Sequence record: PQ438393.1
DNA: 64,000 bases
From: Escherichia phage vB_Eco_J-01
Strand: one strand, 5' to 3'
This document shows, piece by piece, positions 58,861 through 60,264 of this stretch. The notes under the pieces were generated by a model. That model did not search any database, was not told the DNA's origin, and was given only the letters and a program-made list of their open reading frames with translations. The translations under genes and the position numbers were made by a program. Each line of letters starts with the position of its first letter. Positions within the stretch are counted from its first letter, which is position 1.

Positions 58861-60264
58861 TTACACCTCCTTACTGTATACTAATTTGCCACCATATTGT
58901 GTAATAATTTTTTGAAGATTTTCCAAATCAGAAGCACTTACTGTTTCTGTATGACCATCTTTCAACTCTCTTTCCGTTAAAATACCAGTTTTTAATTTTT
59001 TCTTTATAGCTCTTTCAGCAGCCTTACATTGTTGCACTGTGCTAAAATCATATAAACAAATACGCTCCATAAAAAACATATTACGGCTATTTTGAATGTT
59101 TAATCGCCTATCACTATCTTTAGCTATGCCAAACTTAAGAGCAACTATAATATCATCATCTTTAACAATATTAATATATAATTGCTGTTGACTATGACCA
59201 GCACACTGTGAACACCCACACCCTTGAGTTAATAAGTTACGAGCACTCCCTATCTGCTCCCCATGTACAAGACAAAGATATTTAAACTTACCTATAGAAG
59301 ATGGTTTGGTAATCCAATCTACCCAGACATACCCTTTCTTTTCTATTTCCTTTCTCACTTTGTAGGTAATCTGATTTTCTGTATAATGATAGCTAGTTGC
59401 ACAGCGGCAAGGGATACTTCCTTGTTTAAGATCACTTCCTCTAGAGTAAAATTTACCATCGCAAACACCTGCTTGAACATATTCATCATGGGAGCAAACA
59501 GGACACTCGATCATCCAGATAATATCTCCTGATTTACTACAACTACGTTTCCCTGTATTGGTGAAGATAGTGCCTTCCTTAAATTTCCCTGTAGAAAAGA
59601 AATCTGCAATATGTTGATCGTCGGATATTGTTTTTGCCTTCCTTATATTCTCCCTCCTACATAAAGGACAACCATTGCCATTTTTAAAACTGTTAATACT
59701 TGTAGTATCCCATCTGTTCCCACAATGACACAACAAATCAAGTTTTGTGTAACACCCTTTCCATTTTCCAACGTACCCTAACACCTGATACCCCTTCTTC
59801 TGTGCTATCTCTGCCAAGATCGGTAATTCTGTTTCCCATGTTAACGGCTTCTTACCAGAACAGATAGGACAACCACGTCCATTCCTAAAATCAATAATGT
59901 GCGTGGTGTTCCACTCTCCATGTTTAGGGCAAACTATGCGAATTTTTGTTCGCACACCTCGCCACTCCTCGGCAAGACCTATAAAAGTAAACCCTCTTTC
60001 TTTAGCAATATCAACAAGGGAAATACATTCCTTTTCTTCTGTTACTTTTCTACGACCATTGCAATCGGGGCAACATTTACTGCCTTTAGTTTTAAATTTA
60101 GCGATTGTGGTACTTTCCCACTCTCCATGTTTAGGGCAAGATAGCTTAAGTTTAGTCTTGTGCCCTTTCCATTCACCAACATAACCCAGGATTTGAATAT
60201 TGTGATTTTTAGCAAGGGGTGTTAATTCTTCTTTATATTGTTCCCATGATTTTGGTACTGGCAT
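58861..60264 (-). CDS. protein with triplicated zinc-ribbon module and C-terminal T5orf172-like domain
   Basis: Three repeats of about 75 aa (LGYVGEWKG...CPKHGEW...GCPxC); C-terminal KFGIAKDSDRRL resembles T5orf172/GIY-YIG-like; GAGGAG RBS. Confidence 0.5.
   Translation of the reverse strand: MPVPKSWEQYKEELTPLAKNHNIQILGYVGEWKGHKTKLKLSCPKHGEWESTTIAKFKTKGSKCCPDCNGRRKVTEEKECISLVDIAKERGFTFIGLAEEWRGVRTKIRIVCPKHGEWNTTHIIDFRNGRGCPICSGKKPLTWETELPILAEIAQKKGYQVLGYVGKWKGCYTKLDLLCHCGNRWDTTSINSFKNGNGCPLCRRENIRKAKTISDDQHIADFFSTGKFKEGTIFTNTGKRSCSKSGDIIWMIECPVCSHDEYVQAGVCDGKFYSRGSDLKQGSIPCRCATSYHYTENQITYKVRKEIEKKGYVWVDWITKPSSIGKFKYLCLVHGEQIGSARNLLTQGCGCSQCAGHSQQQLYINIVKDDDIIVALKFGIAKDSDRRLNIQNSRNMFFMERICLYDFSTVQQCKAAERAIKKKLKTGILTERELKDGHTETVSASDLENLQKIITQYGGKLVYSKEV

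Follow-up and report, generated by a model that had tools for sequence, protein, structure and literature searches.

Five CapR-homology modules joined to a T5orf172 domain: a putative homing-class endonuclease of Escherichia phage vB_Eco_J-01

Introduction

Phage proteins that begin with zinc-finger modules and end in a T5orf172 nuclease domain have been described as putative homing endonucleases of vibriophage ICP1 and its relatives. A gene of the same architecture lies on the minus strand at positions 58861..60264 of the window, the 64,000-nucleotide (nt) stretch of Escherichia phage vB_Eco_J-01 (PQ438393.1) analyzed here, and encodes five CapR-homology zinc-finger modules followed by a T5orf172 domain of the GIY-YIG nuclease superfamily. 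Among 229 T5orf172 homing endonuclease genes, 87% bear CapR, DUF723 or DUF4379 zinc fingers, which are often serial and arranged as 'beads on a string' (Barth, Dunham and Seed 2023, PMC10448857). Domains have been swapped between such genes, and ICP1 gp174 has lost one module through an in-frame deletion of 228 base pairs (bp) between degenerate repeats; according to the same authors, homing and domestication are inseparable by sequence alone (PMC10448857).

Two relatives have been studied biochemically. PLE CapR is a zinc-finger DNA-binding repressor whose four module cysteines are needed for DNA binding, as judged from electrophoretic mobility shift assays with Cys-to-Ser mutants (Netter et al. 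2021, PMC8096241). The same work relates this repressor to the N-terminal parts of ICP1 proteins ending in T5orf172, which are putative homing endonucleases (PMC8096241). The T5orf172 protein Odn (Gp88, origin-directed) of ICP1 cuts DNA in vitro, and the substitution E180A abolishes cleavage (Barth et al., PMC8263062). Odn is the sole family member with shown in vitro cleavage.

The literature search found no study of the present gene in Justusliebigvirus, the phage genus to which the window belongs, and the main text of PMC10448857 does not name these phages. The architecture itself is already published for the T5orf172 homing endonucleases of ICP1 and its relatives, and it is no new kind of system.

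Domain architecture of the encoded protein

The gene product is quite probably a sequence-specific DNA endonuclease belonging to the T5orf172 homing-endonuclease class; its five-module array would read the site, its C-terminal domain would cut, and the whole would evolve as a cassette in a fixed slot. The gene is a single complete open reading frame (ORF) of 467 amino acids (aa) plus stop codon, whose span agrees exactly with the coordinates of an original prediction made by a model from the letters of the window. The protein matches PHROG 681, 'endonuclease', at 5.7e-89 and has 159 homologues at E <= 0.001, and tblastn finds matches in 559 phage records, including ICP1 genes annotated 'putative homing endonuclease' (32% identity over aa 130-393, E = 2e-27).

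The Pfam CapR profile (PF21817, gathering score 24.2 bits) matches the whole protein in five stretches with a total of 155.3 bits, well over the gathering score, and it matches all 48 of the 48 homologues compared. The modules, all on the minus strand, were also scanned singly. R1 (aa 5-72; 60049..60252) scores 42.6 bits, with C43, H46, C65 and C68 as putative zinc ligands; R2 (aa 73-140; 59845..60048) scores 39.8 bits, with C112, H115, C132 and C135; and R3 (aa 141-208; 59641..59844) scores 56.1 bits, with C179, C181, C199 and C202. R4 (aa 209-292; 59389..59640) is a longer variant scoring 48.4 bits that carries C254-x2-C257 ... C286-x-C288. The divergent R5 (aa 293-360; 59185..59388), with putative ligands C331, H334, C351 and C354, scores 18.5 bits and is the only one of the five modules to fall under the CapR cut-off when scanned alone. 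R5-equivalent modules in orthologues reach up to 32 bits against a hidden Markov model (HMM) built from R1-R3 alone, and the four putative ligands of R5 are invariant across the 48 homologues. R4 belongs to the core that is constant among orthologues; its C254 and C288 are likewise invariant, and C257 and C286 are retained in 47 of the 48. The ligand patterns thus read C-x2-H ... C-x2-C in R1, R2 and R5, C-x-C ... C-x2-C in R3, and CapR-type in R4.

The original prediction had described an internal triplication with a period of about 75 aa. Its three repeats are real: in a segment-by-segment Smith-Waterman comparison with 500 shuffles, R1-R3 aligned locally with scores of 126-143, compared with an average of about 24.5 (standard deviation about 4.7) for shuffled sequences, equivalent to z = 22-26 (22-24 for R1 against R2 and R3), and none of the 500 shuffles reached the observed values. 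R4 and R5 had been overlooked, and the total is five; the period is 67-69 aa (207 nt from R1 to R2). The shared motifs named for the repeats each hold in two of the three and vary in the other. LGYVGEWKG stands at aa 26-34 and, as LGYVGKWKG, at 162-170, with IGLAEEWRG in R2; TKL stands at 37-39 and 173-175, with TKI in R2; CPKHGEW stands at 43-49 and 112-118, with CHCGNRW in R3; and GCPxC occurs as GCPIC (131-135) and GCPLC (198-202), with CCPDC in R1. At the DNA level R1-R3 are just 53-55% identical, so the repeats are old and did not arise by a recent triplication. Tandem Repeats Finder did not detect the internal repeats of the gene, which it misses because of the DNA identity of about 55%. 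Pairwise Smith-Waterman comparison of R4 and R5 with R1-R3 was not significant, and a self-BLASTP of the protein returned nothing beyond the identity alignment.

The original prediction had called the module a zinc ribbon, a fold made of two beta-hairpin zinc knuckles. The fold of a single module was predicted by AlphaFold for R3, with a predicted local distance difference test (pLDDT) score of 91.6 and a succession of helix, beta-sheet and short helices. The only match of a profile search was a marginal one to the zinc-type ribosomal protein bL31 (E = 0.024), taken as not significant, and phmmer against PDB sequences found nothing. The hits of the fold search included no structure of CapR, DUF723 or DUF4379 bound to DNA. 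For the related DUF4379, Pfam gives a probable treble-clef finger. By analogy with PLE CapR, the modules are expected to bind zinc and to bind DNA sequence-specifically.

The remainder of the protein (aa 361-467; 58864..59184, minus strand) forms the T5orf172/GIY-YIG-like nuclease domain, with KFGIAKDSDRRL at aa 377-388. The domain narrowly passes the Pfam T5orf172 profile (PF10544, gathering score 20 bits): it scores 20.5 bits within the full-length protein (E = 6.9e-4) and 23.7 bits when scanned by itself; six of the 48 homologues match the related MUG113. Across the 48 homologues, which reach down to 28% identity, Y363, D369, K377, G379, I380, R387, E417, G437, E440 and T441 are invariant. 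A whole-protein AlphaFold model built on the 48-sequence alignment has a mean pLDDT of 84 and a predicted template modelling (pTM) score of 0.40, and the predicted structure of the nuclease domain shows the GIY-YIG alpha/beta fold. The low pTM is expected because the domains are loosely linked, as beads on a string. Within the genus this domain is the best-conserved part of the protein, with 91-94% identity, and by analogy with its relatives it would cleave DNA. The likeness of the C-terminus to T5orf172/GIY-YIG, part of the original prediction, is thereby borne out, as is the broader suggestion that the protein binds nucleic acid and may contain a nuclease domain, given the CapR-homology modules and the T5orf172 gathering score. 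Both the T5orf172/GIY-YIG relationship and the repeats beyond chance were found, the two things on whose absence that prediction had staked its refutation. Its further statement that this is 'not a standard homing endonuclease' is right only in that the protein falls outside the LAGLIDADG, HNH and I-TevI types; repeated CapR/DUF723/DUF4379 modules with T5orf172 themselves make up a class of putative homing endonucleases already described in phages (PMC10448857).

Comparison with described systems

The closest likeness is to ICP1 gp53, gp121, gp130, gp165 and gp174, which have the same order of N-terminal CapR/DUF723/DUF4379 modules, often repeated, and a C-terminal T5orf172 domain. The two also share the in-frame loss of a single module between degenerate repeats (228 bp in gp174, 207 nt here) and the swapping of domains between alleles. 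They differ in lineage, the present gene belonging to Justusliebigvirus of E. coli, and in genomic setting: here the gene is single-copy and sits in a slot fixed across the subfamily, whereas the ICP1 genes are a multi-copy family within one genome. The present protein has five modules, and its orthologues form a series with 0-4 N-terminal modules.

PLE CapR, the founder of PF21817 and the capsid repressor of PLE, a phage satellite of Vibrio cholerae, has the same zinc-finger module, which R4 resembles in its CxxC ... CxC pattern, with 28 residues between the pairs versus 24-26 in CapR. CapR is a stand-alone repressor of 15.5 kDa with no nuclease domain, whereas the protein described here joins five modules to an intact T5orf172 domain. 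Odn resembles it in coupling T5orf172, with conserved Arg and Glu, to a sequence-specific DNA-binding domain, but Odn binds DNA via RepA_N instead of CapR modules, and its role is anti-satellite immunity.

The same modular logic of a nuclease joined to a separate DNA-binding region is found in I-TevI and the T4 Seg proteins, which are canonical GIY-YIG homing endonucleases, and in SLX1/HIGLE, GIY-YIG nucleases that are structure-specific, and the DNA-binding region of I-TevI includes a small zinc finger. The nuclease is N-terminal in I-TevI and C-terminal here; I-TevI binds DNA through its zinc finger, a minor-groove helix and a helix-turn-helix, whereas the present protein has five tandem modules of about 68 aa each. 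In place of the canonical GIY ... YIG, it shows the T5orf172 motif variants xYI ... KFGI. DUF4379/DUF723 multi-repeat proteins (for example P0065, P0068 and P0074) carry 5-9 related zinc modules in tandem, with C-P-x-H-G-x-[FW] ... G-C-P-x-C, but they end in another nuclease, which reads as Vsr/DUF559-like from sequence motifs alone, and their likeness to the present protein is limited to the repeats (25-31% identity).

Allele series and module exchange

Orthologues share R4, R5 and the nuclease domain as an unvarying core. In front of it they carry 0, 1, 2, 3 or 4 N-terminal modules, which gives proteins of 263, about 328, about 396, about 467 and 562 aa, respectively. Three such modules, as in the window allele, are the minority form, and full (100%) coverage of the query is seen in only four or five records. 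Phage inny has two N-terminal modules and ESCO9 has one. Two-module alleles (P0005, P0006, P0010) begin with a hybrid of the N-terminal half of R1 and the C-terminal half of R2, and in the one-module alleles (P0013, P0016) the module is an R1/R3 hybrid. C-terminal domain types are also exchanged among homologues, for example between P0020 and P0012.

A 207-nt in-frame indel separates alleles with three from those with two N-terminal modules. Its boundary is a 22-nt exact direct repeat, TTGCCCTAAACATGGAGAGTGG on the gene strand, which encodes CPKHGEW; the R2 copy lies at 59911..59932 and the R1 copy at 60118..60139, exactly 207 nt (69 codons) away. The allele of phage inny has a 207-nt (69-codon) gap whose ends lie in this TTGCCCTAAACATGGAGAGTGG repeat, which is the signature of in-register recombination between repeats, parallel to ICP1 gp174.

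As a separate observation, one metagenomic homologue of 669 aa (P0024) looks like a head-to-tail fusion of two full endonuclease units, each with modules and T5orf172. It could be a read-through tandem gene duplication or an artefact of assembly or gene calling.

The gene slot and its flanks

The 3.5 kilobases (kb) around the gene are 98% identical to Escherichia phage PaulScherrer (Bas60), in which the orthologue is bas60_0110, and 92-95% identical to about 50 other phi92-type phages (Stephanstirmvirinae, Justusliebigvirus). By nucleotide identity, the window is Justusliebigvirus DNA. The gene follows an ATPase gene in all coliphage Stephanstirmvirinae checked, which represent two genera (PaulScherrer, inny, ESCO9, Eryne, Mt1B1_P17, nieznany, Schickermooser and phiWec181).

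Within this constant setting the gene itself varies. Against inny and ESCO9, protein identity reaches 100% for the ATPase and 98% for the downstream YbiA-like protein but only 81-85% for the endonuclease. In DNA, the flanks are 96-100% identical and positions 59250-60250 form a divergence island of 79-86% identity plus indels. Synonymous divergence (dS) in R4-R5 is 0.38-0.51, versus 0.04-0.11 in the flanks, which points to alleles imported by recombination from more distant relatives. The ratio of non-synonymous to synonymous divergence (dN/dS) is 0.34-0.53 for the whole gene, 0.2-0.4 for R4-R5 and 0.4-0.8 for R1-R3; judged by the whole-gene value, purifying selection acts on the gene, which is no decaying pseudogene. 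Of the marks sought for a free-standing homing endonuclease gene, a local island of divergence or mosaicism between more uniform flanks and the shuffling of domains among alleles are both present.

In a more distantly related phage, Klebsiella phage FKP3, a DNA methyltransferase fills the slot after the ATPase terminator, and a CapR/T5orf172 homologue of 316 aa is found on the opposite strand at a distance of about 2 kb, with 33% identity in its C-terminal 160 aa; the methyltransferase and the homologue are at 2113-2835 and 6036-6986 of FKP3 (L007). The slot protein contains a DPPYG stretch, which we take to be a methyltransferase-type motif. A mislabelled YbiA-like gene was considered for this methyltransferase and ruled out, as the two have no BLASTP similarity. 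Since the FKP3 slot differs and the homologue lies elsewhere on the other strand, the gene appears to have moved over long times, and because a methyltransferase takes its place there, the slot, on this comparison of gene content, seems to be an accessory-gene hotspot.

Proposed mechanism and alternative explanations

The protein is a probable site-specific DNA-cutting enzyme. In the proposed mechanism, five independently folded zinc-binding CapR-homology modules, strung like beads, would read an extended DNA site, and the tethered C-terminal T5orf172 domain, with its GIY-YIG fold, would cut close by, using the conserved R387 and a glutamate, E417 or E440, as in other GIY-YIG enzymes. Its evolution would be that of a cassette, in which the two C-proximal modules and the nuclease form the constant core and the N-terminal array gains, loses and swaps modules through in-register recombination between degenerate repeats. 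Each loss, gain or exchange of modules would retarget the enzyme, with a changed target specificity expected. On this reading the protein would still home, or at least would cut the DNA of competitors without the gene.

Several points weigh against this reading. The T5orf172 HMM match is marginal, and only 28 of the 48 homologues match at E <= 0.01. The catalytic glutamate, equivalent to I-TevI E75 or Odn E180, is assigned by motif order and could be either E417 or E440. Zinc binding, DNA binding and cleavage are all carried over by analogy from the family. As for active homing, every coliphage Stephanstirmvirinae examined has the gene in the same slot, and no close relative with an empty target allele was found. 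The window contains a single copy: HMMs for the repeat and for the C-terminal domain picked up no second family member in the six-frame set of its ORFs. Outside the gene itself, DNA identity in the flanks gives no gradient of the kind left by co-conversion.

A possible, though rather less than probable, alternative is that the gene descends from a homing endonuclease but is domesticated, no longer homes, and is kept as a useful site-specific nuclease against competing phages, satellites or the host chromosome, with the N-terminal array tracking targets in an arms race. A slot fixed across two genera, a single copy, purifying selection, and a DNA-binding array that is hypervariable between near-identical flanks would all suit such a role. 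Odn, a T5orf172 nuclease in anti-satellite immunity, provides a precedent (PMC8263062), and sequence alone cannot tell homing from domestication (PMC10448857). However, no target is on record for the gene, and the endonuclease has no match in NCBIfam or PADLOC, so that a role as a known defence component is without support. A homing endonuclease gene in the late phase of its life cycle would also be expected to be fixed and then to turn over its alleles, and the FKP3 slot, with its methyltransferase and a homologue elsewhere, argues for long-term mobility. The pattern is equally compatible with a homing endonuclease gene at a late, fixed stage whose alleles turn over and with a domesticated anti-competitor nuclease like Odn.

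A more speculative extension of the homing-class endonuclease reading, for which we hold only slim expectations, is that the CapR modules recognize DNA by a modular code: every unit of about 68 aa would read a separate sub-site, like zinc-finger or TALE arrays, and the allele series would record retargeting. If true, the pattern would suggest selection on target choice, for example in competition between co-infecting phages, beyond selfish homing.

It is improbable that the protein is a DNA-binding regulator without nuclease activity, in the manner of PLE CapR, with a zinc-finger array that would repress or tune phage or host transcription and a C-terminal domain that would be only structural or DNA-binding. 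CapR is indeed a transcriptional repressor derived from this family (PMC8096241), and the T5orf172 match is weak. But CapR has no T5orf172 domain, whereas here that domain is the most conserved part within the genus, which makes a purely regulatory role unlikely; every GIY-YIG-type motif residue is invariant over the 48 homologues, and the predicted fold matches active nucleases. Chance likeness in an ORF that is unrelated or has no function, as an account of both repeats and C-terminal motif, is refuted by the CapR score (155 bits in total), the repeat z-scores (0 of 500 shuffles) and the number of homologues, and dN/dS below 1 and the confident predicted structure speak against it as well.

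Neighboring genes and other features of the window

The start codon of the endonuclease gene is preceded by a strong ribosome-binding site, AAGAGGAG, at 60271-60278, 6 nt before the ATG. Between it and the upstream AAA ATPase gene (60339..61466, minus strand) lies a terminator-like hairpin, AAAACCCGCTTCGGCGGGTTTT (60302..60323, minus strand), and a terminator is annotated at the equivalent place in phage Schickermooser. From the hairpin to the start codon, a promoter scan gave no standout sigma-70-like promoter, with a result no better than that of shuffled sequence. The ATPase is labelled 'FtsH-like protease', 'ATPase' or 'regulatory inactivator' in different records, and it has only weak NCBIfam matches, to Hda, IstB and a RuvB-like P-loop region.

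Downstream, the ATG of a YbiA/NADAR-like gene (58309..58860, minus strand) abuts the endonuclease stop codon with a gap of 0 nt. The encoded protein matches TIGR02464 with 110 bits and the PADLOC candidate PDC-M42C at 1.7e-34; some records label the gene 'DNA methyltransferase' or 'GTP cyclohydrolase II'. NADAR proteins can take ADP-ribose off DNA, and an anti-defence role for the YbiA/NADAR-like protein is conceivable. The AT-rich non-coding stretch downstream of this gene contains tandem repeats at 57799-57862 (29 nt x 2.2) and 57964-58095 (68 nt x 2.0), the latter where the records of phages inny and alia annotate a 'repeat_region'. These tandem repeats may be regulatory or origin-like.

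Elsewhere in the window, DNA identity to PaulScherrer, otherwise 98%, falls to 67-86% at 62250-63000, in the vicinity of two small ORFs (62375..62713 and 62812..63165), making a second patch of local mosaicism that has no connection with the endonuclease. GC skew is positive to about 34 kb and negative after, probably because the coding strand switches there. The window yielded no tRNA genes.

Significance

Among the orthologues of the endonuclease gene, the PaulScherrer record reads 'hypothetical protein', RefSeq relatives read 'endonuclease' and UniRef gives 'CapR homology domain-containing protein'. The present analysis provides a well-supported annotation for a gene that is labelled 'hypothetical protein' in most Justusliebigvirus and Phapecoctavirus records, PaulScherrer included. 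It extends the T5orf172/CapR class known from ICP1-like vibriophages to well-sampled and easily handled E. coli phages, some of them in the BASEL collection. The coliphage allele series is a useful experimental handle and no surprise: natural alleles with 0, 1, 2, 3 or 4 N-terminal modules in near-identical backgrounds make up a ready series in which the number of modules can be set against the DNA target.

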